A stretch of 64,000 bases of DNA from NCBI GenBank assembly GCA_048500355.1, contig JASNYD010000006.1, positions 224,211-288,210 of the forward strand. The letters run 5' to 3'. Shown one piece after another: positions 7,923 to 59,871 of the stretch (position 1 is its first letter; each line of letters begins with the position of its first letter). A program made the position numbers and the translations under genes. The stretch comes from Kofleriaceae bacterium (lineage in GTDB: Bacteria; Myxococcota_A; Polyangia; Haliangiales; Haliangiaceae). Below the pieces are notes generated by a model. It was given only the letters and a program-made list of their open reading frames with translations. It was not told the origin of the DNA and did no database searches.

Positions 7923-9041
7923 CTACCAGCCGGTCAGAAAGCCTCCGTCGTACCAGTCCCAGATCAGGTAGGTCATGACCTGGGTGGGGCGCTCGACGCG
8001 ATCGGTGACGGGTACGCGCACTCCGACGCTGGCCACCACGTGCTGGCGGGCGCTGAGCGTGACCTGGAGCTGGGGCACGACGTCGACGTCGAGCCGGGCG
8101 TCGTCGGCCACGGCGCGGGCCCCCAGGAGCTCCACCATCGGCGACCAGGCGCGACCGTGGCCGCCGTCGGCGAGCAGCCGCCGGCCGGCGACGGCGCGCG
8201 CGAACAGCTCGTCGGGGTGGTCGCGATCGATCGGGACGGCGCCGCCGAGCTGGAGCTGGAGGAACGTGCGCGCGGTGAGGAGCTGGCCGTAGGCGACGAA
8301 GGCCTCGACCACGGTCGCGCCGCCGCCGATCCCGCGCTCGGTGCTGCCGGTGGGGACCACGAGCTCGCCGGCGACGCTGACGATCGCGCCCCGGGGCAGG
8401 CTGTGAGCGAGCACGCGCTTGTAGGCGAACGCGAGGTCGCCGACGCCGCCGCGCCAGTCGCCGGTGGCGTCCTCCACGAGCGACACCGGGACCACGACCT
8501 CGACCTGGGCGCGCGCGCCGAGCCGCCGCGCGTAGACGAAGCGCGTGGTCACCGCGCCCTGATCGGCGATCACTCGCAGCGCCGCCTCGTCCTCGGGGAA
8601 GGCCTTGGAGGTCACCTGGGCGCGCGGCAGGTTGAGTTCGCCTCGCGGCCAGCCGTCCTCCACGCAGAAGGTGCGGACGTGGGTCACGATCCGCCGCAGC
8701 TCGTCCACGGTGAGGAGCTCGGCGAACGACGGCATCTGCCGGTCGAAGCCGCGGGCCGGACCGCCCCCGTGGGCGACGGCGATCCAGTCGTTGTCGGGCT
8801 CGCGGCTGGCGAAGCTGCAGTCGGTGAGGTCCGGTGGCTGGAGCGGCAGCGACGACGCCGCGGCCGCGCCCCCCCGACCATCGCTGCCGTGACACGCCGC
8901 GCAGGCCGCCTCGTACAGCTCGCGCCCGCTGCGAGCGGTCGCGGTGGCGGCGGTCCCCGCCACCCACGCCATCACGGCCGCGGCGGCAGCCAGGATCCGC
9001 AGCCCGCAAGCCGTGCGCGCCCGAACGCTGGTCGTGACCAT
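7923..9041 (-). CDS. cytochrome c domain protein (single CxxCH) with C-terminal domain of unknown function
   Basis: CAACHGSDGRG haem motif after a signal-like N-terminus; ATG (MVTTS...) chosen; ORF-track start at 9059 is a TTG; stop 23 nt before the multiheme cytochrome start (operon). Confidence 0.7.
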   Translation of the reverse strand: MVTTSVRARTACGLRILAAAAAVMAWVAGTAATATARSGRELYEAACAACHGSDGRGGAAAASSLPLQPPDLTDCSFASREPDNDWIAVAHGGGPARGFDRQMPSFAELLTVDELRRIVTHVRTFCVEDGWPRGELNLPRAQVTSKAFPEDEAALRVIADQGAVTTRFVYARRLGARAQVEVVVPVSLVEDATGDWRGGVGDLAFAYKRVLAHSLPRGAIVSVAGELVVPTGSTERGIGGGATVVEAFVAYGQLLTARTFLQLQLGGAVPIDRDHPDELFARAVAGRRLLADGGHGRAWSPMVELLGARAVADDARLDVDVVPQLQVTLSARQHVVASVGVRVPVTDRVERPTQVMTYLIWDWYDGGFLTGW

Positions 9042-9043
9042 GC

Positions 9044-9072
9044 CGGCGGGTCGTTGCAAGCCCAGCGCCAGC
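9044..9072 (-). promoter_or_regulatory. candidate sigma-54 (-24/-12) promoter element TGGCGC-N5-TTGCA upstream of the cytochrome operon
   Basis: Minus-strand sequence CTGGCGCTGGGCTTGCAACGACCCGCCGGCATG matches TGGCAC-N5-TTGCW at 10/11 positions, but lies very close to the start codon (TTGCA ends 13 nt before ATG). Confidence 0.25.
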
Positions 9073-9191
9073 GCGGCGCCGTGGCGGGCGGCCTCGTGGT
9101 CCGCCCCGACCGATCGGCGTGCGCGTCGGAGCTCACCGCGCGCGGCCCTTGCGGCGCCGCGCGGCGCGAAATGGTCGCCCCCCCGCTGGCG

Positions 9192-9761
9192 TCAGCGGAA
9201 GCGATGACCGACGTGGAGCGCGGGGAACACCATCCACGGCGAGCGCGCGAAGGTCGCGCCGTCCAGCGTGACGTCGCCGGCGCCGAGCGAGCGCCCCACC
9301 GCGAGCCAGGCCGTGGCGTAGAACCGCGCCGGCAGGTCGAGGCGCCAGCCGGCGTGGACATCGACGCTGACCTCGCGCGCGTCGTGCGCGAGCTGGGTGC
9401 CGTCACGAGTCACCGTGAAGCGGACGAGGCCGAGGCCGACGCCGACGAAGCCCCCACGCTGCTGCGGCGAGGCGAAGGCCTGCAGCTTGGCGCCGTAGCC
9501 GTGGAACGCGGCGGCGAAGCCGTCGTTGCCGTGGATGAAGCCGGGCACGTCGAGGGCGAACGCACCGAGATCGACGCGGAGGCGCCCGGCGCCCGCGCCG
9601 ACGTGGAGGGAGTAGCCGCCGAGCGCGTACGCCGTCGGGTCGACCTCGGCGTCGGCGCGGAGCCCGACGGGCGCGGCGGGCCCGCTCGCGGGATCGGCGG
9701 CCGGCGCGCCGGCGACCACCATGATGGCGGGGAGGGCGAGGGCGAGACCCTGGCGGGCCAT
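9192..9761 (-). CDS. small outer-membrane beta-barrel-like secreted protein (hypothetical)
   Basis: ATG at 9761 gives MARQGLALALPAIMVVAGAPAA signal peptide; alternating amphipathic beta-strand pattern; C-terminal ...HVGHRFR with terminal aromatic; the 546-aa ORF-track frame upstream of this ATG is Arg/Gly junk. Confidence 0.55.
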   Translation of the reverse strand: MARQGLALALPAIMVVAGAPAADPASGPAAPVGLRADAEVDPTAYALGGYSLHVGAGAGRLRVDLGAFALDVPGFIHGNDGFAAAFHGYGAKLQAFASPQQRGGFVGVGLGLVRFTVTRDGTQLAHDAREVSVDVHAGWRLDLPARFYATAWLAVGRSLGAGDVTLDGATFARSPWMVFPALHVGHRFR

Positions 9762-47321: not shown

Positions 47322-48620
47322 GTGCCGACCCCGAAGCGCGTCGCGTTCGCAGCCCTCCTGACACACGTCGTCGCCACCGGCGGCCTCGCCGCCGCCCAGC
47401 CCGCGGGCCCCGCCGATCCCGACGAGGCCAGCCCCGCCGACCTCGCCGCTGGTGCCCCCGCCACCCCCGAGGGCGACCCGCCCGCCGACGGCGAGGAGGT
47501 CGAGGCCGAGGAGGTGGGCGAGCCGATCATCGATCGCGGCGAGCCCCGGGCCGAGGCCGGCTTCGACAAGGGCTTCTTCATCAAGAGCGCCGACGGCAAG
47601 TACAGCATGACGGTGACCGGGCGCGTCCACCCCTACTACAGCCTCGACCGCCGCACCGGGCCCGTCGACTACCGTCAGGCCTTCGAGGTGCGGCGCGCCC
47701 GCCTGGTCTTCGACGGCGACGTCCACGGCGATCACCTCGGCTACAAGCTGCAGATCGACTTCGGGCGCGGCGTGGTGACGCTCAAGGACTTCCACTTCGA
47801 CCTGGCGCTGGCCGACCAGGTCTGGCTGCGCGTCGGCCAGTGGAAGCGGCCGTTCTCGCGCCAGCACATCACCTCGAGCGGCCGCCAGGAGCTGACCGAC
47901 CGCGCGATCACCGACAAGGCCTTCGGCGCCGGCCGCGACGTCGGCCTCGCGCTGCGCAACGACTACGAGAAGTCGCCCGATCTCGAGTGGACCGTGGGCG
48001 TGTTCAACGGCACCGGCGACGCCGCCCGCCTGACCGGCACGGTCGAGGTCGACCCGGTCACCGGCGAGGGCACGATCACCGGCGGCGGACTGTCCAACGT
48101 GCCGACGACCTTCCGGCCGGCCGTCATCGGCCGCGTCGGCCTCAACGGCGGCAAGATCAAGGGCTACAGCGAGGCCGACCTCGAGGGCGGCGGCCTGCGC
48201 TGGGGCGCGGCGGCCAGCGTGTGGCTCGAGGGCGATCTCGACGAGAACGACGCGTCCAACCAGAAGGTCGAGCTCGACTACGTGGTCAAGCACTCCGGCT
48301 TCACCACCACCGGCGGCTTCTACGGCATGACCGCGCAGACCGCGGCCCAGACCTTCTCCAGCCAGGAGCTGGCCTTCGTCGGCTTCCACCTCCAGGCCGG
48401 CTACATGGTCACGCCCCGCGTCCAGCTCGCCGCCCGCTACGCGCTGGTCGACGCCCGGCTCGACGACAGCAAGGACCAGCAGGAGCTGGCGCTCGGCGGC
48501 AGCTTCTACGGCCACAAGCACGACGCCAAGCTGGCGGCGGCGCTGCGGCTGTTCAAGAACGGCGACGCCGGCTTCGGCGACGCGATCCTGCTCGAGGTGT
48601 CGAGCAACGTCGGCTGGTAG
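47322..48620 (+). CDS. outer-membrane porin, putative phosphate-selective (OprO/OprP-like), paralog 1
   Basis: Signal peptide, acidic Pro/Asp/Glu linker, beta-barrel-like alternating pattern; immediately downstream of pstSCAB. Confidence 0.65.
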   Translation: MPTPKRVAFAALLTHVVATGGLAAAQPAGPADPDEASPADLAAGAPATPEGDPPADGEEVEAEEVGEPIIDRGEPRAEAGFDKGFFIKSADGKYSMTVTGRVHPYYSLDRRTGPVDYRQAFEVRRARLVFDGDVHGDHLGYKLQIDFGRGVVTLKDFHFDLALADQVWLRVGQWKRPFSRQHITSSGRQELTDRAITDKAFGAGRDVGLALRNDYEKSPDLEWTVGVFNGTGDAARLTGTVEVDPVTGEGTITGGGLSNVPTTFRPAVIGRVGLNGGKIKGYSEADLEGGGLRWGAAASVWLEGDLDENDASNQKVELDYVVKHSGFTTTGGFYGMTAQTAAQTFSSQELAFVGFHLQAGYMVTPRVQLAARYALVDARLDDSKDQQELALGGSFYGHKHDAKLAAALRLFKNGDAGFGDAILLEVSSNVGW

Positions 48621-48684: not shown

Positions 48685-50001
48685 ATGGGGCCCCCTCTGT
48701 CGCCACGCCCGCCCGCCGTCACCGCCGCGCTCGCCGTCGCCCTCGGGTTGACGCTCCTCGCCGACGCCGGCCTCGCCCGGGCCCAGCCCGCCGACGAGGA
48801 CGAGGCCTCGCCCGCCGATCTCGGCGAGCCCGACGCCGACCCCGGCGGCGACGCGGCCGGGGAGGACGAGGAGGTCGAGGCCGAGGAGATCGGCGGCCCC
48901 GAGATCGATCGCGGCGAGGGCGTGACCGAGGTCGGCTTCGCCGACGGCTTCTTCATCAAGGCCGCCGGCGGCAAGTACACGCTGCGCCTGAGCGGCGGCG
49001 TGCAGCCGGCCGCCACCCTGACCCGGACCACCGGCCCCAGGGACTGGACCGGCGCGTTCTCGGTCCGGCGCGCCCGCCTCGCCCTCGACGGCAACCTCCA
49101 CGGCAAGGCCCTGCGCTACGGCCTCCAGCTCGACGCCGGCGGCGGCGTGGTCTCGGCCCAGGATCTCTACCTCGACGTCGCGCTGGGCCAGCGGCTGTGG
49201 CTGCGCGCCGGCCAGTGGAAGCGGCCGTTCTCGCGCCAGCAGCTCACGCCCTATCAGCGCCTCGAGCTCGGCGAGCGCGCGATCACCGACGCCGTCTTCG
49301 GCGCCGGCCGCGATCTCGGCGTCGCCGTGCACAACGACCCCGGGCGCGCGTCCGGCCTGGAGTGGGCGGTGGGCGTGTTCAACGGCACCGGCGCGGCGCC
49401 GTGGCTCGGCGGCACGGTCGCGACCGATCCGGCGACCGGGGCCGGGACGATCACCGGCGGCGGCTTCACCAACGTCCCGCGCGAGCTGGCGCCGGCGGTG
49501 GTCGCGCGCGTCGGTCTCGCCGAGGGCGGCGACGGCTACAGCGAGGCCGACCTCGAGGGCGGGCCCCTGCGCTGGGGCGTCGCGGCCAGCGCCTGGCTCG
49601 AGGGCGACCTCGATCGCGACGACGCCTCGAGCCAGCGGGTCCAGCTCGACTACCACGTCAAGGTCGCCGGCTTCGCCTCCACCGGCGGCTTCTACGGCAT
49701 GACCCGCCAGACCGGCGCCCAGCCGTTCTCGACCCAGGAGCTGGCCGCGGTCGGCTTCCACCTCCAGGTCGGCTACCTGGTCGCGCCCCGGCTCCACCTC
49801 GCGGCCCGCTACGCGCTGATCGACGCTCGCCCGGCCGCCGGCGCCGCCGCCGCCGACCAGCACGAGCTCGCGCTCGGCGGCACGTACCACGGCCACGGCC
49901 ACCAGGCCAAGGTCACCGCCAGCGTCCGCCTCGTCAAGACCGGCGACGCCAGCCTGACCGACCTCGTGCTGTTCGAGCTGCTCGGCTTCGTCGGCTGGTA
50001 G
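48685..50001 (+). CDS. outer-membrane porin, putative phosphate-selective (OprO/OprP-like), paralog 2
   Basis: ~50% identical to the preceding gene over full length (shared GFFIK, WLRAGQWKRPFSRQ, WAVGVFNGTG, GFHLQ.GY, ARYAL.DAR, LELLGFVGW). Confidence 0.65.
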   Translation: MGPPLSPRPPAVTAALAVALGLTLLADAGLARAQPADEDEASPADLGEPDADPGGDAAGEDEEVEAEEIGGPEIDRGEGVTEVGFADGFFIKAAGGKYTLRLSGGVQPAATLTRTTGPRDWTGAFSVRRARLALDGNLHGKALRYGLQLDAGGGVVSAQDLYLDVALGQRLWLRAGQWKRPFSRQQLTPYQRLELGERAITDAVFGAGRDLGVAVHNDPGRASGLEWAVGVFNGTGAAPWLGGTVATDPATGAGTITGGGFTNVPRELAPAVVARVGLAEGGDGYSEADLEGGPLRWGVAASAWLEGDLDRDDASSQRVQLDYHVKVAGFASTGGFYGMTRQTGAQPFSTQELAAVGFHLQVGYLVAPRLHLAARYALIDARPAAGAAAADQHELALGGTYHGHGHQAKVTASVRLVKTGDASLTDLVLFELLGFVGW

Positions 50002-50152: not shown

Positions 50153-51631
50153 ATGAAGCCGTCATCCCCGCACCTCCCCCACCTGCTCGCGATCGCCCTC
50201 CCCTTGCTCGGCCTGGCCGCCGGCTGTCTCGGCGCCGAGGACGAGCTCCTCGCCGAGGACGACCTCGGCACCGAGGCGGCCGCCCTGGTCTCGCCCCAGG
50301 TCGCCGGCCTGTCCTCGAGCGGCGTCCCCGATCCCATGGCCGCGGTCGACGGCGACCTCGCCACCGGGACCACGGTCGACAGCGCGGTCGGCAACTGCCC
50401 GCTCTACAACAGCGGCCCGTTCATCAAGCTGAACGCCGGGCACTGCCTGTTCACCCCGACCGGCACGACCTTCTTCGGCTGGGCGATGGTCAAGCTGCGG
50501 GTCGGCAACGGCGGCGACGTCGATCTCGTCGAGCTGAGGCTGACCCACGATCGCACCGGCTCGACCGCGAGCCCCGCGCCCCAGACGCTGGTCTACACCT
50601 CGTGGGACGGCAAGGCCTTCAGCGCGCGGGGCGCCTTCACCGCGTCGACCACGCGGACGACCTCGACGATCCGCCTCGTGCCGCCGACCCGGCCCGCGCC
50701 CTACGTCTGGGTCGTCCTCGGCAAGTCGACGGTGTCGGCGGCGGCGCCGGCCGGGCCGACCCTGCGCTGGTTCGAGCTGGCGGCGACCCACCTCGCGCCG
50801 CCCGCCGGCCTGACCGCGCGCGCGGTGTCGGCGACCGCGATCGACCTGAGCTGGGCCGACACCTCGACCGCCGAGACCGGCTTCGAGGTCTTCGTGCAGC
50901 CGGCGGGCGGCGCCTGGCGCAGCCTCGGCCTCGATCCGGGCGGCGCCAACCAGACCTCCGAGCGCATCACCGGCCTCGCCCCCAGCACGACCTACGCCTT
51001 CCAGCTCCGCGCCCGCAGCGGCACGACCTCCTCGCGCCCCAGCAACACGGCGTCGGCGACGACGCCGGCCGGGCCGCCCGGGCGCCTCGCCCTCGTCAAC
51101 AACTCCCAGGTCGACGTCCTCCAGGTCCTGTTCGACGGCGTCGCCCGCGCGCCCAGCCAGGTCGTCGGCAACCAGGGCCTGTTCGACCTCCCGGCCGGCA
51201 CCTACCGCGTGGTCGCGGCGCTCGGCTTCGGCGCTGGCGCCGGCATCGCCGCCGGCGCCGGGGTGTGCGACGCGAGCTGGACCGTCACCGTGGCGTCGGG
51301 CCAGACGGCGACCCTGAGCGTGGCGCCGCTCACCGCCGGCCAGGTGCTCACCCACTGCGGCCCGGCGGCCGACTACGGTCAGGGCGGCTACACCGATTCG
51401 AGCGGCTACCACACGGTCGCGCTGCGCTTCCACGCCAGCGGCGCCTTCGACTACTGGCACGACGACGTCCGCCAGCCGTCGGGCACGATCACCAGCACCA
51501 CGTTCAACCCGCCGTGGCTGACCTTCACGCTCTCCACCGGCGACGTCCTCACGATGGGCTGGCCCTACGGCACCCTCGACGTCCGCGTCGGCACCGCGCC
51601 GGTCCGCCTCCTCCGCGCCACGCCGTGGTGA
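50153..51631 (+). CDS. lipoprotein with fibronectin type III domain (hypothetical)
   Basis: Lipobox LLGLAAGC; FN3-like segment (PPAGLTARAVSATAIDLSWADTSTAETGFEVFVQ...TTYAFQLRARS). Confidence 0.65.
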   Translation: MKPSSPHLPHLLAIALPLLGLAAGCLGAEDELLAEDDLGTEAAALVSPQVAGLSSSGVPDPMAAVDGDLATGTTVDSAVGNCPLYNSGPFIKLNAGHCLFTPTGTTFFGWAMVKLRVGNGGDVDLVELRLTHDRTGSTASPAPQTLVYTSWDGKAFSARGAFTASTTRTTSTIRLVPPTRPAPYVWVVLGKSTVSAAAPAGPTLRWFELAATHLAPPAGLTARAVSATAIDLSWADTSTAETGFEVFVQPAGGAWRSLGLDPGGANQTSERITGLAPSTTYAFQLRARSGTTSSRPSNTASATTPAGPPGRLALVNNSQVDVLQVLFDGVARAPSQVVGNQGLFDLPAGTYRVVAALGFGAGAGIAAGAGVCDASWTVTVASGQTATLSVAPLTAGQVLTHCGPAADYGQGGYTDSSGYHTVALRFHASGAFDYWHDDVRQPSGTITSTTFNPPWLTFTLSTGDVLTMGWPYGTLDVRVGTAPVRLLRATPW

Positions 51632-51737
51632 GCCGGTGGCTGCGTGGCCTGGGTGGAGCTGTCGCCAGGGTGACCTGCCCGATCCTGCCGGTACGGTCGA
51701 TGGCGGCGCGCGCATCCGATGCGCTAGGGTCAACGTC

Positions 51738-52190
51738 ATGTCGATGAACGGGGAGCTCCGCCTGATTCCGCCCGAGCTCATGGATCAGTTGGACGACGAG
51801 GATGTGGTCGACGGCCTGATGGATGGTGACGGGCTCTCCGTCGGCAAGGCGTGGAACGGCTTGCACTACCTCTATTGCGGCGACGGGACGGCGGGCGAGA
51901 GCGCGATCAGCGGTGGCATTCCCCTCGACCATGGCGACACCGGCTACGGGCCGCCGCAGTACCTGACGCCGGACGAGGTCGCGGCCTACGCGCGCGAGCT
52001 CGAAACGCTGACCGATGAGAGGCTCCGCGACGCATACGATGCGAAGGAGATGGAGCAGGAGAGCGTCTATCCGGGTGGCTGGGACGACCCGTCCAATCTG
52101 GAGTGGCTCCTCACAGAAGCGCGCAAGGTGCGCGAGTTCTATCGCGAGGCGTCGGCGAAGGGCGCGGGGGTATTGCAGTTCCTCGCGTAG
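51738..52190 (+). CDS. DUF1877 (YfbM-like) family protein
   Basis: 150 aa; resembles YfbM family (MSMNGELRLIPPELMDQL...LHYLY); noticeably lower GC than flanking genes. Confidence 0.65.
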   Translation: MSMNGELRLIPPELMDQLDDEDVVDGLMDGDGLSVGKAWNGLHYLYCGDGTAGESAISGGIPLDHGDTGYGPPQYLTPDEVAAYARELETLTDERLRDAYDAKEMEQESVYPGGWDDPSNLEWLLTEARKVREFYREASAKGAGVLQFLA

Positions 52191-52475
52191 TCGCTCTGCC
52201 TCGGCGAGAAGGTCGGGCTCCTCGCCGACGCGCGGCTCTGCCCCTGGACTGCGCCAAGTACCTCGCCGAGGAGGGCGACCGCCAGCACCTTCTTCGATCG
52301 TCGGGCGTGGCACGGGTCGTCCGTGTCGTCGCTTCGCGCCCGGTCGGCCTGGGGTGTCTGGTCCCCACGATGCCCTTCGTGTCACCCTGGTCGACGAAGC
52401 CGCGGGGATCACGCGGCCAGGCCCGCCGACAAGCCGCCGGCGACACCCCGGCGGGCGGGCGGATCGCGACACGGG

Positions 52476-53348
52476 CTACCCTTGCGCGTCCACGGCCTGC
52501 ACCGGAGCGCCGACGAGAATCGGTGCCATCAGGTCTTCCAGGCGCCGCCGCCGCTCTCCTGCGACGGGCGTCAGCGCCGTCTCGATCGACTCCGTCAGCT
52601 GGATGTACGTCAGCTCGCCCACCCGATCGACCCGGGCCGGCTCGACCTCCGCCTTGACGCGCGCCAGCCCGCCGATGGCCTCGAGGTGGCCGTCGTGGAG
52701 GTAGGTCCCCCAGCGCGGATGCCGGGCGTACCTGCGACCGATGAACTTGAACCACTCCGCGGCCAGGCTGGTCTGCTTCCGGAACCCTGCGGGCAGCCCG
52801 AGGTCGACGTCGCCCTGGGGCGTGTCGAGGATCAGGTTCATGAGCCACGTGTCGCAGATGGCCAGGTCGTACGTTGGCCACGCCCCGAGGATCGCGTGCA
52901 GCACACCCAGCTCCGTCACCAGCTCGTGCATCAGCTCGATCCAGGCAGCGAACGACTTGCCCGGCGGCAGCTCCGCCGATCGACACGTGACTCGCAGCTG
53001 GAAGGGCTCGTTCCATTCCTCTCGCGAGCGATCGAGGTTGAGCATGACCCTGGTGAAGTTCCCGTCCCCCCTCGCACGGTTCATGTAGAGGCGGCTCAGC
53101 TTGTCGGACCGCAGCCCCTCCAGGATCGGCGCCGAGCCATTCTTCCCTCCCACGCGGACCGACCTCCGGTCGTCTCGCTTGTGCAGCCCCGAGTACGACG
53201 CCCACCACGGGATCCATGGCCACCGCTTGTCGACCAGGAGGTCGGCGACGCGCTGCGCTCGGTCCGGGTCGACCCACACGGCCTTCTCGAAGAACGCCAC
53301 GAGACCGGCATGAGGAAACTGGCTGTTGATGCTCGGTTGCCGTGCCAC
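52476..53348 (-). CDS. Trp-rich 290-aa protein, tandem paralog 1 of 4 (putative immunity protein of the upstream secreted toxin-like protein)
   Basis: GTG start preceded by GGAGTAGGA; MARQPSINSQFPHAGLVAFFEKAVWVDPDRAQRVADLLVDKRWPWIPWWASYSG...; natural amino-acid composition, whereas all other frames are Arg/Pro/Gly junk; no signal peptide. Confidence 0.7.
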   Translation of the reverse strand: MARQPSINSQFPHAGLVAFFEKAVWVDPDRAQRVADLLVDKRWPWIPWWASYSGLHKRDDRRSVRVGGKNGSAPILEGLRSDKLSRLYMNRARGDGNFTRVMLNLDRSREEWNEPFQLRVTCRSAELPPGKSFAAWIELMHELVTELGVLHAILGAWPTYDLAICDTWLMNLILDTPQGDVDLGLPAGFRKQTSLAAEWFKFIGRRYARHPRWGTYLHDGHLEAIGGLARVKAEVEPARVDRVGELTYIQLTESIETALTPVAGERRRRLEDLMAPILVGAPVQAVDAQG

Positions 53349-53694
53349 GCGACATCCTACTCCGAGAGGTCGACCACGAGCGCTGTGTGAACCCCACCTG
53401 GCTGGTGACGCCGCGCTCGCCACGACCTCGCCATCACTGATCGCGACCAGCCGTTCGGGCTTGGATGTCGACGGAGGGGATGGCAGCTCGGATCGCGTCG
53501 CTCCAGGCCGAGATGGCGACCAGGGAGCGCGACGCCGTCGCGCGAACCTGGATCGCCCCGGTCGGCCTGGGGTGTCTGGTCCCCTCGATGCCCTTCGTGT
53601 CACCCTGGTCGACGAAGCCGCGGGGATCACGCGGCCCAGGCCCGCCGACAAGCCGCCGGCGACACCCCGGCGGGCGGGCGGATCGCGACACGGG

Positions 53695-54567
53695 CTACCC
53701 TTGCGCGTCCACGGCCTGCACCGGGGCGCCGACGAGAATCGGTGCCATCAGGTCTTCCAGGCGTCGCCGCCGCTCTCCTGCGACGGGCGTCAGCGCCGTC
53801 TCGATCGACTCCGTCAGCTGGATGTACGTCAGCTCGCCCACCCGATCGACCCGGGCCGGCTCGACCTCCGCCTTGACGCGCGCCAGCCCGCCGATGGCCT
53901 CGAGGTGGCCGTCGTGGAGGTAGGTCCCCCAGCGCGGATGCCGGGCGTACCTGCGACCGATGAACTTGAACCACTCCGCGGCCAGGCTGGTCTGCTTCCG
54001 GAACCCTGCGGGCAGCCCGAGGTCGACGTCGCCCTGGGGCGTGTCGAGGATCAGGTTCATGAGCCACGTGTCGCAGATGGCCAGGTCGTACGTTGGCCAC
54101 GCCCCGAGGATCGCGTGCAGCACACCCAGCTCCGTCACCAGCTCGTGCATCAGCTCGATCCAGGCAGCGAACGACTTGCCCGGCGGCAGCTCCGCCGATC
54201 GACACGTGACTCGCAGCTGGAAGGGCTCGTTCCATTCCTCTCGCGAGCGATCGAGGTTGAGCATGACCCTGGTGAAGTTCCCGTCCCCCCTCGCACGGTT
54301 CATGTAGAGGCGGCTCAGCTTGTCGGACCGCAGCCCCTCCAGGATCGGCGCCGAGCCATTCTTCCCTCCCACGCGGACCGACCTCCGGTCGTCTCGCTTG
54401 TGCAGCCCCGAGTACGACGCCCACCACGGGATCCATGGCCACCGCTTGTCGACCAGGAGGTCGGCGACGCGCTGCGCTCGGTCCGGGTCGACCCACACGG
54501 CCTTCTCGAAGAACGCCACGAGACCGGCATGAGGAAACTGGCTGTTGATGCTCGGTTGCCGTGCCAC
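53695..54567 (-). CDS. Trp-rich 290-aa protein, tandem paralog 2 of 4 (putative immunity protein)
   Basis: Identical or near-identical to paralog 1; same GTG/RBS context. Confidence 0.7.
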   Translation of the reverse strand: MARQPSINSQFPHAGLVAFFEKAVWVDPDRAQRVADLLVDKRWPWIPWWASYSGLHKRDDRRSVRVGGKNGSAPILEGLRSDKLSRLYMNRARGDGNFTRVMLNLDRSREEWNEPFQLRVTCRSAELPPGKSFAAWIELMHELVTELGVLHAILGAWPTYDLAICDTWLMNLILDTPQGDVDLGLPAGFRKQTSLAAEWFKFIGRRYARHPRWGTYLHDGHLEAIGGLARVKAEVEPARVDRVGELTYIQLTESIETALTPVAGERRRRLEDLMAPILVGAPVQAVDAQG

Positions 54568-54922
54568 GCGACATCCTACTCCGAGAGGTCGACCACGAGC
54601 GCTGTGTGAACCCCACCTGGCTGGTGACGCCGCGCTCGCCACGACCTCGCCATCACTGATCGCGACCAGCCGTTCGGGCTTGGATGTCGACGGAGGGGAT
54701 GGCAGCTCGGATCGCGTCGCTCCAGGCCGAGATGGCGACCAGGGCGGCCAACGGAGCGCGACGCCGTCGCGCGAACCTGGATCGCCCCGGTCGGCCTGGG
54801 GTGTCTGGTCCCCTCGATGCCCTTCGTGTCACCCTGGTCGACGAAGCCGCGGGGATCACGCGGCCAGGCCCGCCGACAAGCCGCCGGCGACACCCCGGCG
54901 GGCGGGCGGATCGCGACACGGG

Positions 54923-55795
54923 CTACCCTTGCGCGTCCACGGCCTGCACCGGAGCGCCGACGAGAATCGGTGCCATCAGGTCTTCCAGGCGCCGCCGCCG
55001 CTCTCCTGCGACGGGCGTCAGCGCCGTCTCGATCGACTCCGTCAGCTGGATGTACGTCAGCTCGCCCACCCGATCGACCCGGGCCGGCTCGACCTCCGCC
55101 TTGACGCGCGCCAGCCCGCCGATGGCCTCGAGGTGGCCGTCGTGGAGGTAGGTCCCCCAGCGCGGATGCCGGGCGTACCTGCGACCGATGAACTTGAACC
55201 ACTCCGCGGCCAGGCTGGTCTGCTTCCGGAACCCTGCGGGCAGCCCGAGGTCGACGTCGCCCTGGGGCGTGTCGAGGATCAGGTTCATGAGCCACGTGTC
55301 GCAGATGGCCAGGTCGTACGTTGGCCACGCCCCGAGGATCGCGTGCAGCACACCCAGCTCCGTCACCAGCTCGTGCATCAGCTCGATCCAGGCAGCGAAC
55401 GACTTGCCCGGCGGCAGCTCCGCCGATCGACACGTGACTCGCAGCTCGTACGGTTCGCTCCATTGCTCCTTCGTAGGATCGAGGTCGAGTGCGACCCTGG
55501 TGAAGTTCCCGTCCCCCCTCGCACGGTTCATGTAGAGGGTACCCATCTTGTCGGACCGCAGCCCCTCCAGGATCGGCGCCGAGCCATTCTTCCCTCCCAC
55601 GCGGACCGACCTCCGGTCGTCTCGCTTGTGCAGCCCCGAGTACGACGCCCACCACGGGATCCATGGCCACCGCTTGTCGACCAGGAGGTCGGCGACGCGC
55701 TGCGCTCGGTCCGGGTCGACCCACACGGCCTTCTCGAAGAACGCCACGAGACCGGCATGAGGAAACTGGCTGTTGATGCTCGGTTGCCGTGCCAC
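54923..55795 (-). CDS. Trp-rich 290-aa protein, tandem paralog 3 of 4 (mosaic variant; putative immunity protein)
   Basis: Same frame and length; central segment KMGTLYMNRARGDGNFTRVALDLDPTKEQWSEPYELRV differs from KLSRLYMNRARGDGNFTRVMLNLDRSREEWNEPFQLRV in the other copies. Confidence 0.7.
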   Translation of the reverse strand: MARQPSINSQFPHAGLVAFFEKAVWVDPDRAQRVADLLVDKRWPWIPWWASYSGLHKRDDRRSVRVGGKNGSAPILEGLRSDKMGTLYMNRARGDGNFTRVALDLDPTKEQWSEPYELRVTCRSAELPPGKSFAAWIELMHELVTELGVLHAILGAWPTYDLAICDTWLMNLILDTPQGDVDLGLPAGFRKQTSLAAEWFKFIGRRYARHPRWGTYLHDGHLEAIGGLARVKAEVEPARVDRVGELTYIQLTESIETALTPVAGERRRRLEDLMAPILVGAPVQAVDAQG

Positions 55796-56141
55796 GCGAC
55801 ATCCTACTCCGAGAGGTCGACCACGAGCGCTGTGTGAACCCCACCTGGCTGGTGACGCCGCGCTCGCCACGACCTCGCCATCACTGATCGCGACCAGCCG
55901 TTCGGGCTTGGATGTCGACGGAGGGGATGGCAGCTCGGATCGCGTCGCTCCAGGCCGAGATGGCGACCAGGGAGCGCGACGCCGTCGCGCGAACCTGGAT
56001 CGCCCCGGTCGGCCTGGGGTGTCTGGTCCCCTCGATGCCCTTCGTGTCACCCTGGTCGACGAAGCCGCGGGGATCACGCGGCCCAGGCCCGCCGACAAGC
56101 CGCCGGCGACACCCCGGCGGGCGGGCGGATCGCGACACGGG

Positions 56142-57014
56142 CTACCCTTGCGCGTCCACGGCCTGCACCGGGGCGCCGACGAGAATCGGTGCCATCAGGT
56201 CTTCCAGGCGTCGCCGCCGCTCTCCTGCGACGGGCGTCAGCGCCGTCTCGATCGACTCCGTCAGCTGGATGTACGTCAGCTCGCCCACCCGATCGACCCG
56301 GGCCGGCTCGACCTCCGCCTTGACGCGCGCCAGCCCGCCGATGGCCTCGAGGTGGCCGTCGTGGAGGTAGGTCCCCCAGCGCGGATGCCGGGCGTACCTG
56401 CGACCGATGAACTTGAACCACTTGGCCGCGAGGCTGGTCTGCTTCTGGAACCCTGCGGGCAGCCCGAGGTCGACGTCGCCCTGGGGCGTGTCGAGGATCA
56501 GGTTCATGAGCCACGTGTCGCAGATGGCCAGGTCGTACGTTGGCCACGCCCCGAGGATCGCGTGCAGCACACCCAGCTCCGTCACCAGCTCGTGCATCAG
56601 CTCGATCCAGGCAGCGAACGACTTGCCCGGCGGCAGCTCCGCCGATCGACACGTGACTCGCAGCTGGAAGGGCTCGTTCCATTCCTCTCGCGAGCGATCG
56701 AGGTTGAGCATGACGCTGGTGAAGTCGCCGTCCCCCCTCGCACGGTTCATGTCGAGGCGGCTCAGCTTGTCGGACCGCAGCCCCTCCAGGATCGGCGCCG
56801 AGCCATTCTTCCCTCCCACGCGGACCGACCTCCGGTCGTCTCGCTTGTGCAGCCCCGAGTACGACGCCCACCACGGGATCCATGGCCACCGCTTGTCGAC
56901 CAGGAGGTCGGCGACGCGCTGCGCCCGGTCCGGGTCGACCCACACGGCCTTCTCGAAGAACGCCACGAGACCGGCATGAGGAAACTGGCTGTTGATGCTC
57001 GGCTGCCGTGCCAC
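56142..57014 (-). CDS. Trp-rich 290-aa protein, tandem paralog 4 of 4 (putative immunity protein), translationally coupled to upstream gene
   Basis: GTG 8 nt after the TAG stop of the 734-aa gene, which fixes the start codon choice for all copies; a few substitutions (LSRLDM, GDFTSV, FQKQ, AAKWF). Confidence 0.7.
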   Translation of the reverse strand: MARQPSINSQFPHAGLVAFFEKAVWVDPDRAQRVADLLVDKRWPWIPWWASYSGLHKRDDRRSVRVGGKNGSAPILEGLRSDKLSRLDMNRARGDGDFTSVMLNLDRSREEWNEPFQLRVTCRSAELPPGKSFAAWIELMHELVTELGVLHAILGAWPTYDLAICDTWLMNLILDTPQGDVDLGLPAGFQKQTSLAAKWFKFIGRRYARHPRWGTYLHDGHLEAIGGLARVKAEVEPARVDRVGELTYIQLTESIETALTPVAGERRRRLEDLMAPILVGAPVQAVDAQG

Positions 57015-57022
57015 GCGAGATC

Positions 57023-59227
57023 CTACTCCGAGAGGTCGACCACGAAGTCCTTGAACAGCTTCCCCGCCGGCGGACAGTACTCGTAGACGCGCAGCTCCGG
57101 CTTGAGTTCGGCGGTCTGGCTGGCCTCGTCGAAGCAAGGGCGCAACACCTCGAGGTTGCCGGTCAGCTCGTCGCGCCTCTTCTTCCCGCGAAGTGCGTTC
57201 ACGATCTCCCGGATGCCGTCTTCGATCTGCACCTTCCCCAGCTTCCTGGCATCCTCGTTGTTCGGCTTGATCTCGACGACGTAGCAGACGTTCCCGTCCA
57301 CGCGGATGCAGTCGACACGGCGATTGCCATAGGTGAGCTCGCTCCTGGTGCACTTGCTCGAGTCGCCCTGGATGCGCCTGTGCTCCTGCTTGCCGACCTC
57401 GATCTGGGCTCGGACCTCCGGATCGTTGGCGCCGTTGAGCTCGTCGTTCAAGAGGCTCGCGAGGCTGCTGAGCCGACGCTTGACGCTGTCGCGCGCCTTG
57501 GTCGCAGCCTCGCGGATGTCATCGTCCTCGGCCTTCATGAGGCGCTCGGCGTGGCCGATGAGGGCCAGGCCGCTCGTGTTGATGTTCCCCCACTGGGGTC
57601 GGACGCGGTCGCGCATCCGGTCCGCGATCTCTCGTAGCTGCGCGGCGTGGGCGTCACCCTCCGCGTAGTCCCCGGGCGACTCGGGGATCGAGCAGAAGAG
57701 CTGCCGGACGTTCCGCGTGTCCTCGACGTACCAGCGACGGAGCTCCTTGATGCCATCGTCCCACCTCCGCAGCTCCGAGCGGAGCTGCGCCAGGTCGGCG
57801 GTGGCGCCCTTGAGCGCGGCCTGCAGCTGCTCGATCGCGGCCTTGGCGATCGGTCCGTCCTCGCCCATCGCGATCTTCTCGCAGTCCCGCTGCGCGATCT
57901 CGCGCGCCTTCTTCCAGTACTCGAAGGTGCTCTCGGCGGCGGTGCGGTACTTCCCGGTGAGGCTCGACCACTGTCCTTCGGAAGGTGCGAACCGCTGGGT
58001 CTCCGAGCGCGCACGCTCCATCGTCGCATGCTGCTCGTTGGTCTTCGCCAGGCCCGCGATGATCGGCTGAGCAAGAGACTTCGCTTGCAGCTTGATGTGC
58101 TCGATGCCCTTGGTGTCGTTCTTCTCGACGTAGCGGCGAACCAGGTCGGAGAGTCGCTGCGATGCCTCCTGACAGCGCTTGGGGGCGTTGTCGGCGAGGA
58201 ACTGGGCCTCCTTGAGCACGCGGAGCGGCTTCAGGGCCTCCCGCGCGGCGCGGACGTTGTTGCGCCACACCTCGAGCCGGCGCTTGGCCTCCCCGTCGTT
58301 GCCCTTGACGCGGTCGAGCTGTTCGAGGAGGCGGTCGATCTCGTTCAGCTTGCCGTCCGCCCGGGCGATGTCGGAGGCGTCGCTGTCGCCCGCGAGACCA
58401 TCGAGGCTCGACGCCATCTCGCCGAGCTGGCGGTCGAGCTGCTCGTAGACCATCTCGATGCCCCTCTTGCCCTCGTAGAGCTTCCTCATCGCATCCTCGA
58501 CCAGCGGGTTGCGCTCCTCCCGGGCGAGGTTGCCGCAGACGTCGTCGCGCTTCACCTGCTCCGACTGCTTGACGGTGTGCTCGTACATCGTGCGGGCAGA
58601 GGTGACGAGGTTGTTGCGGACGTCGCTCCACCTACCATCGCTGTACGAGAAGTCGTCGGCGCGATCGTACCAGGTGTACATCTCGTTCTTGGTCCGCTCG
58701 GCCTGCTCCATCGCCTCCTTGCCCACTCGGCCAAACTCGCGCGCGAGCTTGGGCACCTCGTCGACGCCGCGCGGGTCCGGACTGTCGGTGTAGGTCTTCA
58801 TCCGCGAGGTCAGCTCGCGCACCGCCTGCTCGCACTTCCTGGGCCACTCATCGACCTTGCGGTGGCCGTTCTTGAGCTCGCGCAGGTAGCCAGCGGCGTC
58901 CTTGTAGCGGCTGGCGATGTCCGGGTAGGACTCGCCCATGCGGCGGGCGTCGGAGTCGTCGTCGGCCTGGTTCTTGAGGTCGCGTGCCTTCTCGGAGACA
59001 CGCCCGGCGTAGTCGATGGTGCGGTCGAGGTCCGACGTGCTCGAGTCACCGGGCACGTCGCGCAGCTCGCTGGCGATATCGGAGAGCAGACGCTCGATCT
59101 CCTCGCGGAGCTGGCGGCGCTTCGACTCATCGGCCCGGACCGGGCCTCCGGACGCCAGCGCCACTACGCCGAGAGCCAAGGCGGCGAGCTGGATGCGGTG
59201 CACACCGCGCTGCTGTCTCTTCGTCAT
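57023..59227 (-). CDS. Sec-secreted 734-aa coiled-coil protein with C-terminal PD-(D/E)xK-like nuclease motif (putative polymorphic toxin / bacteriocin-like effector)
   Basis: ATG 59227 with GGAGG 7 nt upstream; signal peptide MTKRQQRGVHRIQLAALALGVVALASGGPVRA; ~600 aa of charged heptad-like helical sequence; C-terminal ~100 aa with RVDCIRVDGNVCYVVEIKPNN (D...EIK); lower GC than the genome. Confidence 0.75.
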   Translation of the reverse strand: MTKRQQRGVHRIQLAALALGVVALASGGPVRADESKRRQLREEIERLLSDIASELRDVPGDSSTSDLDRTIDYAGRVSEKARDLKNQADDDSDARRMGESYPDIASRYKDAAGYLRELKNGHRKVDEWPRKCEQAVRELTSRMKTYTDSPDPRGVDEVPKLAREFGRVGKEAMEQAERTKNEMYTWYDRADDFSYSDGRWSDVRNNLVTSARTMYEHTVKQSEQVKRDDVCGNLAREERNPLVEDAMRKLYEGKRGIEMVYEQLDRQLGEMASSLDGLAGDSDASDIARADGKLNEIDRLLEQLDRVKGNDGEAKRRLEVWRNNVRAAREALKPLRVLKEAQFLADNAPKRCQEASQRLSDLVRRYVEKNDTKGIEHIKLQAKSLAQPIIAGLAKTNEQHATMERARSETQRFAPSEGQWSSLTGKYRTAAESTFEYWKKAREIAQRDCEKIAMGEDGPIAKAAIEQLQAALKGATADLAQLRSELRRWDDGIKELRRWYVEDTRNVRQLFCSIPESPGDYAEGDAHAAQLREIADRMRDRVRPQWGNINTSGLALIGHAERLMKAEDDDIREAATKARDSVKRRLSSLASLLNDELNGANDPEVRAQIEVGKQEHRRIQGDSSKCTRSELTYGNRRVDCIRVDGNVCYVVEIKPNNEDARKLGKVQIEDGIREIVNALRGKKRRDELTGNLEVLRPCFDEASQTAELKPELRVYEYCPPAGKLFKDFVVDLSE

Positions 59228-59267
59228 CTGGAACCTCCACGCCTCGGTCGAGTAGAAGCACCGCAGC

Positions 59268-59340
59268 TTCTGGTCACTTTATCGCCGAGTTCGACATCTT
59301 GGTCAATCGCCATGACGGCGGTTTGACCGCGTCTGTGACC
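59268..59340 (-). promoter_or_regulatory. nested inverted repeats in the promoter region of the toxin-like operon (possible operator)
   Basis: CTGGTCAC...TTGGTCAA-N16-TTGACC...GTGACC, 40-110 nt upstream of ATG 59227 on the minus strand, in a low-GC noncoding stretch. Confidence 0.25.
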
Positions 59341-59871
59341 TCCTCATTCCGCGGACGAACTTTGCCACCCTGCATGCGCGGGCAAGGTGTCAGAGTCGAG
59401 GGCTATCGCGGCGAGGCGACCGTGCGGAATCTCGATCGCCATCGTGTCGTGGGTGTTCGTCGCCTCGGCGTGCATGGTGTCCTCGACGGGGTTCACGTCG
59501 ACGGACGACGAGCCCGATCGGTTCGTCTGATTCACCGGCCGTCGTTTGGTGTGATGTTCATGAGGCCCGGGCTCACGCACGAGACTACTCGCGAGCTGCC
59601 GCTGGCCGTATGATCAATCCCAGGATCGCCATTGACAGCCCGGTCTGCGAGGTGTCGGTGACGCGGAATCTGGGCCAGCCGGCGGGGACCGAAGGGCCTG
59701 CCCGTGGCGCTGCCGGCGCTGCCCCGCGCCCGCCGCACCACCGACACCGGGCTCGCGCCGGGCCTTGGGCCCACAATTGTCGTCGGTGGGCGACCTTCGC
59801 TGACGAAGAAAGATAGACCGACGCCGGGGCGGAGGCGTCGACAGGGGCACCAACACCTGGAGGCCCCGTCC

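Follow-up and report, generated by a model that had tools for sequence, protein, structure and literature searches.

A tandem array of putative immunity genes behind a toxin-like gene in a Kofleriaceae genome, with a repeat junction inside the last codons of the toxin gene

Our analysis of 64,000 nucleotides of DNA (the whole analysed stretch, hereafter the window) from a metagenome-assembled genome (MAG) of a soil or sludge myxobacterium of the Kofleriaceae (Myxococcota) showed that a 734-aa toxin-like gene is followed by four tandem copies of a putative immunity gene of 290 aa, and that every spacer between the copies closes with a copy of the final 23 nt of that toxin-like gene. The arrangement is quite probably a young tandem immunity-gene array of a polymorphic-toxin-type locus, which would have been founded by an illegitimate event and then enlarged by homologous expansion together with the import of allele tracts.

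The features of the array are summarized in Table 1. Every gene of the array lies on the minus strand, as does the toxin-like gene, and the Kofleriaceae MAG proteins HS111_37565 and HS111_37570 match the products of the window at 100%. A repeat search and alignments gave start-to-start distances between the immunity copies of 1219, 1228 and 1219 nt. The repeat unit is composed of the toxin's last 23 nt, an 8-nt gap which together with them carries the ribosome-binding site, the 873-nt immunity open reading frame (ORF) and a 315-nt non-coding tail, and the repeated span (57045..52334) corresponds to 3.86 units. The G+C content of the block that contains the DUF1877, immunity and toxin genes (51600-59800) is 65-71%, against 74-78% in the flanks, and this lower value hints at horizontal acquisition.

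Table 1. Positions in the window of the toxin-like gene, the four immunity copies, their spacers and the neighbouring features.
Feature	Coordinates	Strand	Basis or remark
734-aa toxin-like gene	57023..59227	-	ORF listing; Tox-REase-9 profile; motifs
Original 23 nt TCGTGGTCGACCTCTCGGAGTAG (..VVDLSE, stop), toxin 3' end	57023..57045	-	
8-nt gap GATCTCGC, toxin stop to GTG of copy A	57015..57022	-	
Immunity copy A, 290 aa, 873 nt, GTG start	56142..57014	-	
Spacer 1, 346 nt, identical to spacer 3	55796..56141	-	
Immunity copy B, 873 nt, GTG start	54923..55795	-	
Spacer 2, 355 nt	54568..54922	-	
Immunity copy C, 873 nt, GTG start	53695..54567	-	
Spacer 3, 346 nt, third inter-copy spacer	53349..53694	-	
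Spacer 3 positions 1-137, native 3' flank of immunity gene, recurs after copy D	53558..53694	-	
Spacer 3 positions 138-315, 178-nt segment confined to the three spacers	53380..53557	-	
Retained copy of the toxin's last 23 nt in spacer 3	53357..53379	-	
8-nt gap GATGTCGC ahead of GTG of copy D	53349..53356	-	
Immunity copy D, last copy, 873 nt, GTG start	52476..53348	-	
Partial unit (stub) past copy D: 137-nt flank alone, then unique sequence	~52339..52475	-	
DUF1877 gene, convergent, bounds the array	51636..52190	+	Same neighbour in independent contig L011
39-nt stretch RGFVDQGDTKGIE in the 137-nt flank, compared with toxin RRYVEKNDTKGIE	53584-53622, 54813-54851, 56031-56069, 52366-52404; toxin 58100-58138		

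An earlier note on this DNA had claimed that each unit keeps the last ~23 nt of the toxin gene (VVDLSE and the stop codon) and a conserved 8-nt gap before the GTG, and that the junction falls within the final codons of the 734-aa gene. In a right-anchored comparison of the spacers with the toxin 3' end, the match consisted of TCGTGGTCGACCTCTCGGAGTAG (23 nt) followed by GAT, one mismatch, TCGC and GTG, and the identity 5' of the 23 nt was at background level. The shared part is therefore exactly 23 + 8 nt, neither shorter nor longer than claimed, and the proximal junction does lie within the final toxin codons. The gap is conserved in length in all units, but one of its bases differs (GAT[G/C]TCGC), being C ahead of copy A and G ahead of copies B-D. 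There are four occurrences of the motif GGAGTAGGAT[C/G]TCGCGTG, which end at the GTG starts at 57014, 55795, 54567 and 53348, and the corresponding immunity genes stop at 56142, 54923, 53695 and 52476. The spacer length of about 346 nt given in the note holds for spacers 1 and 3, but not for the middle spacer of 355 nt.

Two Shine-Dalgarno-like motifs, GGAG and AGGA, straddle the toxin stop, 11 and 6 nt ahead of the GTG, so that a duplicate lacking the toxin end would lack a ribosome-binding site. Because the ribosome-binding site of the immunity gene lies in the toxin's last codons, only duplicates that took these codons along would be expressible, which would explain the position of the breakpoint. 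GGAG and AGGA are present in every unit, as the earlier note had supposed for the ribosome-binding site; coupling to the toxin gene, which it had also supposed, is kept at copy A only, the TAG retained ahead of copies B-D being the end of no ORF known to be translated. All four copies may plausibly be translated. The change from C to G in the gaps of copies B-D (53349-53356, 54568-54575 and 55796-55803) creates an ATG (GGAGTAGGATGTCGCGTG). It lies 4 nt past GGAG, is not in the frame of the immunity ORF and might compete with the GTG start.

The direction of copying could be read from the closest relative, L013, whose toxin and immunity proteins are 67% and 71% identical to those of the window. 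Its toxin tail (FVVELPQ and stop), 10-nt gap and GTG are homologous to FVVDLSE and stop, 8 nt and GTG in the window; one immunity copy is reached by this contig, which stops 91 nt past the immunity stop. The tail and the gap are thus older than the array, indicating that the toxin-immunity junction was the source of the 23 nt in the spacers, as the earlier note had proposed.

The spacers are composite. Their positions 1-137 are the sequence that also follows the last copy, and positions 138-315 (178 nt) are found in the spacers alone. A simple duplication would give whole units and a junction drawn from both flanks; here the array has 3.86 units and the 178 nt match neither flank. Since the 178 nt are absent past the last copy, one simple duplication of the present sequence is insufficient. 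Compared by blastn and tblastx with the window and with every fetched locus, the 178-nt and 137-nt segments gave chance-level matches only, and the JGI metagenomes did not contain an exact 27-nt stretch taken from the 178-nt segment. The founding junction shows no homology, and the founding event would accordingly be an illegitimate one, in which DNA downstream of the immunity gene was joined to the toxin gene 23 nt ahead of its stop. The 178 nt may have been filler carried at this junction, or may have been lost later after the last copy; by a third route, they would be the flank of a module that arrived from another strain. Unequal crossing-over, which the earlier note had proposed for the amplification as a whole, thus fits the later expansion, but not the founding, whose junction is without homology.

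The sequence differences between the copies bear on the later steps. The four genes encode three protein variants (A, B and C=D), which differ from each other at 5-17 residues, mostly within aa 84-119, and outside short patches the copies are 96-100% identical. Copy A has 11 unique nucleotides, clustered at nt 262-300 and 569-592, and copy B has 21 within nt 250-349 (window 55447-55546), which cause 12 amino acid changes. The dS of the patch in copy B is 0.29, against 0-0.015 elsewhere, indicating that this tract was imported from a diverged allele rather than made by new mutation. Some of the A- or B-specific states are also found in the outgroup L013, and further recombinant immunity proteins (P0066 and P0068) are present in other samples. 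Copies C and D are identical except at nt 804 and 843, where C agrees with A. These two sites pair A with C and B with D; in the same two-unit rhythm, spacer 1 is identical to spacer 3, and the flank of spacer 2 is identical to that of the stub. The spacer identities and the pairing at 804 and 843 together point to the doubling of a two-unit block. We infer from the variants that the later steps would have been homologous unequal crossing-over and gene conversion, including such a doubling and the import of short tracts from diverged alleles.

Spacer 2 lacks one G of a G-run that spacer 1 has, and in this it agrees with the stub after copy D; it also has a 10-nt insertion (54745-54754), apparently an imperfect duplication of neighbouring sequence. 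The difference of one G (54865) is absent from the short-read contig L010, in which the spacer is 356 nt long, and it may therefore be a long-read sequencing error in the source assembly.

The third route for the 178 nt belongs to a different account of the locus, a sequential displacement such as was proposed for the immunity arrays of Vibrio cholerae (PMC5361080). Here an incoming toxin-immunity module would have recombined through homology within the toxin gene at one end, and at the other end by an illegitimate event at toxin position -23. The resident immunity gene would thereby have been moved downstream together with the final 23 nt of the resident toxin, and the 178 nt would be the native 3' flank of the donor. 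Such displacement has the merit of being a model already described, and it would account for the absence of the 178 nt after the last copy and for the high-dS tracts of diverged alleles within the copies; the variation of the toxin alleles between samples and the G+C content of the locus, lower than that of the flanks, are also in keeping with it. However, the three spacers share one junction and spacers 1 and 3 are 100% identical, so that homologous amplification would be needed after the first event anyway, the copies are nearly identical outside the short patches, and the order immunity gene, 137 nt, 178 nt and other sequence was found in no strain among the fetched loci and the JGI metagenomes. 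We regard displacement as unlikely, and prefer an illegitimate founding within the locus followed by homologous expansion.

We also considered whether the spacer was kept because it has a function of its own, for example as the source of a small protein or RNA or as a promoter or terminator. An 85-aa ORF begins 3 nt past each immunity stop (its GTG occupies bases 4 to 6 after the stop), one codon column is 90% G+C over spacer positions 91-240, and the same ORF is called in the annotation of a sister genome. However, two spacer frames had no homolog among 5.8 billion proteins other than this same ORF in the sister genome, and in L010 the frame is shifted by the 356-nt spacer, which means that the peptide is not conserved. 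A search of the spacers against Rfam gave no match, and their RNA folding z-score was -1.8, with 6 of 100 shuffled sequences folding equally well. A consensus scan, which is weak for this phylum, found neither promoters nor terminators in the spacers. A role of this kind is therefore very improbable.

The remaining account of the spacers takes them for decayed orphan toxin C-terminal cassettes: after the duplication of whole toxin-immunity modules, the toxin part would have decayed until about 300 nt were left. Three observations speak for it. A 39-nt stretch of the 137-nt flank (spacer positions 73-111) is identical at 31 of 39 positions, and in frame, to toxin nt 1090-1128 (aa 364-376), and none of 200 shuffled sequences reached 31 identities without gaps; spacer 2 has a frame that is open from the immunity stop to VVDLSE and its stop; and L017, a related locus, bears a decayed toxin C-terminal fragment downstream of an intact pair. 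However, the 39-nt match does not extend, its local alignment score was reached by one of 200 shuffles, its identity (79%) is far from the 96-100% of the neighbouring 23 nt and immunity genes, and its residues are not conserved in the orthologous toxins. In all six frames of the spacers, profile hidden Markov models (HMMs) of the toxin and immunity families scored below zero bits, and tblastn with three toxins returned just the 7-residue end and one patch of 13 residues. These results largely refute the cassette reading. They are in line with the earlier statement that, beyond the 23 nt, the spacers have no similarity to the toxin C-terminus; they gave no other conserved ORF either, and the tblastn check for a decayed toxin C-terminal orphan, which that note had suggested, was negative. 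Cassettes of the integron type were considered as well, and no attC-like core sites were seen in the spacers by eye.

Independent assemblies bear on the reality of the repeat. The short-read contig L012 (1360 nt) has a terminal self-overlap of 141 nt, which corresponds to a period of 1219 nt, and L010 (1259 nt) has an overlap of 30 nt and a period of 1229 nt; contigs that overlap themselves at one period indicate at least two tandem copies in other samples. The toxin contigs from other samples, L007-L009, all three end at window position 57016, the repeat boundary. L011 joins the spacer, the immunity gene, the 137-nt flank and the DUF1877 gene in the order of the window. Although L011 could be taken to show a strain with two copies, we discarded this reading: the 3' halves of the copies are identical, and a de Bruijn path may pass from one copy to another there. 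Both the number of copies, four, and the arrangement of their variants along the array come from the source assembly, which is one MAG. That an assembly artefact multiplied one gene is scarcely credible: the source is a MAG, a second contig of which carries frameshifted fragments of the immunity gene, and the one-G difference resembles a sequencing error, but the periods in the independent assemblies need at least two tandem copies, the toxin contigs of other samples break exactly at the repeat boundary, and individual copies carry distinct variants. The fragments on the second contig (324 kb), annotated as P0063 and P0067, could derive from a second, error-rich assembly of the array locus or from a second locus.

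The toxin-like protein has what looks by eye like an N-terminal Sec-type leader, a long helical region and a putative C-terminal PD-(D/E)xK domain at about aa 605-734. By inspection only, its N-terminus (MTKRQQRGVHRIQLAALALGVVALASGGPVRA/DES) combines a basic n-region with a hydrophobic core and a site of the AxA type, and it lacks a lipobox Cys. The Pfam profile Tox-REase-9 (PF15650) matches aa 610-676 with 14.2 bits, below the gathering threshold of 27.3, and the orthologous toxins give 17.6-26.6 bits over profile region 6-76 of 88, also below the threshold. In the family alignment, no variation is seen at GKQEH (GKxEH, aa 612-616), SEL, RVDC and EIKP (aa 652-655); these motifs agree with the set described for Tox-REase-9 (GxxxH, E, D and ELKP; PMC3482391), and YxxE was not clearly found. 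A single-sequence model of the C-terminal region was poor (pLDDT 46), and its helix-strand order fits an alpha-beta-beta-beta-alpha arrangement with D and ExK on strands 2 and 3. The family profile retrieved coiled-coil noise only from the PDB sequences. From the sequence, the protein resembles a Sec-leader toxin with a Tox-REase-9-like PD-(D/E)xK nuclease domain.

The alleles of the toxin vary almost exclusively at the C-terminus. Of the 19 nucleotide differences between the window and L007 and L009, 17 fall within aa 663-709; the same sites are variable in a third allele (P0073), and the variation is nearly confined to two patches, aa 658-673 and 703-709 (window 57100-57240). The C-terminal domain thus varies between samples and the remainder is conserved, as is expected of polymorphic toxins.

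The AlphaFold model of the 290-aa protein (pLDDT 88) suggests that it is an immunity protein which shares the fold of TsiV/DUF3396 and Imm52. The copy in the window had no match in Pfam (TsiV/DUF3396 is PF11876), and 15 of 27 relatives matched Pfam TsiV weakly (best E 0.0016). A search of the PDB sequences retrieved neither PA3908 nor PA0821, the latter of which has been cited as an immunity protein (PMC9635880); the two matches were unrelated proteins with E of about 1.4. The family has 64 members, all from Kofleriaceae-like metagenomic genomes, and was unannotated before. Taken together, the context, the motifs and the predicted fold make the toxin-immunity reading of the gene pair well supported.

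The conservation of the gene pair was judged on 10 related loci with a full-length toxin. In most of them (for example L002, L006, L013, L015, L018 and L019), one full-length immunity gene comes after a toxin of about 725 aa; toxin stop and immunity start overlap in most of these loci, and L018 and L019 have a short gap. Related toxins usually end in FVVP and the stop. Arrays of immunity genes are also found elsewhere in the family, with three copies in L001, at least two in L014 and three in L023, and the tandem copies in these relatives are 35-80% identical; the array in the window is at the young end of the family's range. In L017, the toxin's last ~20 nt (..KYFVVP and stop) follow the preceding immunity stop directly and form the beginning of a second, decayed immunity copy, and the sequence suggests an independent duplication of an immunity gene together with the toxin's last ~20 nt. 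The region of L017 past the intact pair (8560-9300) contains, in order, a toxin C-terminal fragment (RVDCIRVEGDTCCLVETKPNN), an immunity 3' fragment, and the toxin's last ~20 nt with an internally deleted immunity copy. GGAGTCC may have been retained likewise in L023.

Other members of the family have different arrangements. In two other organisms (P0055; L022, 9804-10291), the toxin N-terminus (about 50-165 aa) is fused to the C-terminal half of the immunity protein, and these fusions look like deletion derivatives without the nuclease domain. L020 (9268-9990) encodes a short toxin of 241 aa, composed of about 125 N-terminal residues and a Tox-REase-9-like domain (24.5 bits), which precedes an immunity gene with 35% identity.

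Amplification of bacterial genes proceeds by an illegitimate founding duplication and subsequent RecA-dependent unequal crossing-over. The array in the window resembles this general scheme in its head-to-tail units, the single novel junction per unit, the two-unit periodicity and the mosaic variants, but differs from a simple amplification in its 3.86 units and in the 178 nt at the junction that match neither side.

In homogeneous polyimmunity loci, several genes of a single immunity family stand in tandem, and they are believed to give protection from variant toxins (Zhang et al. 2012, PMC3482391). The locus is similar in that it has four tandem copies of one immunity family, with arrays of 2-3 copies in L001, L014 and L023, and in that its copies differ in a patch and the toxin alleles of the population differ in matching short patches. 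However, the described loci are usually diverged paralogs, often without a toxin gene, whereas the copies here are nearly identical and directly behind the toxin, and their long (346-355 nt), non-coding spacers each end in the toxin's last 23 nt. The position of the immunity gene immediately downstream of the toxin, which is seen in most of the 10 related loci, is that of polymorphic toxin systems. Stand-alone C-terminal toxin cassettes, another feature of these systems, were absent from the spacers of the window, and L017 has the decayed fragment.

The known pairs whose immunity proteins have this fold, TseV/TsiV (VRR-Nuc and DUF3396) and TseT/TsiT (PA3907/PA3908, Imm52), are of type VI secretion, whereas the toxin here appears to have a Sec-type leader, and PAAR, VgrG and other type VI secretion markers were not found in it. 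Unlike TseV, its nuclease domain resembles Tox-REase-9 and not VRR-Nuc, and the match of the immunity family to Pfam TsiV is weak. As in the orphan arrays of V. cholerae (PMC5361080) and the orphan cdiA-CT/cdiI and Rhs-CT modules (PMC3150448), immunity genes gather here 3' of an active toxin, and pieces of the toxin 3' end can persist ahead of them. However, the arrays of V. cholerae contain different immunity types from other strains, whereas one type is repeated here, and the orphan cdiA-CT and Rhs-CT modules keep whole toxin C-terminal coding regions, whereas 23 nt alone are kept here.

The array would benefit its host by a larger amount of immunity protein and by a small repertoire of immunity variants against the circulating toxin alleles; an array that provides both dose and a small number of specificities fits the description of homogeneous polyimmunity loci by Zhang et al. 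More tentatively, and with considerable doubt, the immunity gene may be a self-contained cassette for which selection repeatedly keeps breakpoints about 20 nt inside the toxin gene (in the window, in L017 and possibly in L023). Arrays would then gather tracts of diverged alleles and store variants matched to the two hypervariable patches of the toxin, making up an evolving repertoire for strain discrimination rather than mere dosage. The locus is of an already known type and leaves the current understanding of polymorphic toxin systems unchanged, while it gives a clean and datable view of how an immunity array starts: with a junction at a point that keeps the ribosome-binding site, followed by expansion and the import of allele tracts. 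Three details are useful: the fixed position of the breakpoint at the ribosome-binding site, the 178-nt segment at the junction and the assignment of a predicted fold to the immunity family. The 290-aa family is tied by its predicted structure to the TsiV/Imm52 fold and is paired with a putative Sec-leader toxin of the Tox-REase-9-like type, which would extend the known partners of Tox-REase-9, earlier listed as Imm54.

Elsewhere in the window, two adjacent ORFs on the plus strand (47322-48620 and 48685-50001; 432 and 438 aa) are similar throughout, have signal-peptide-like starts and look like tandem outer-membrane porin-like paralogs.
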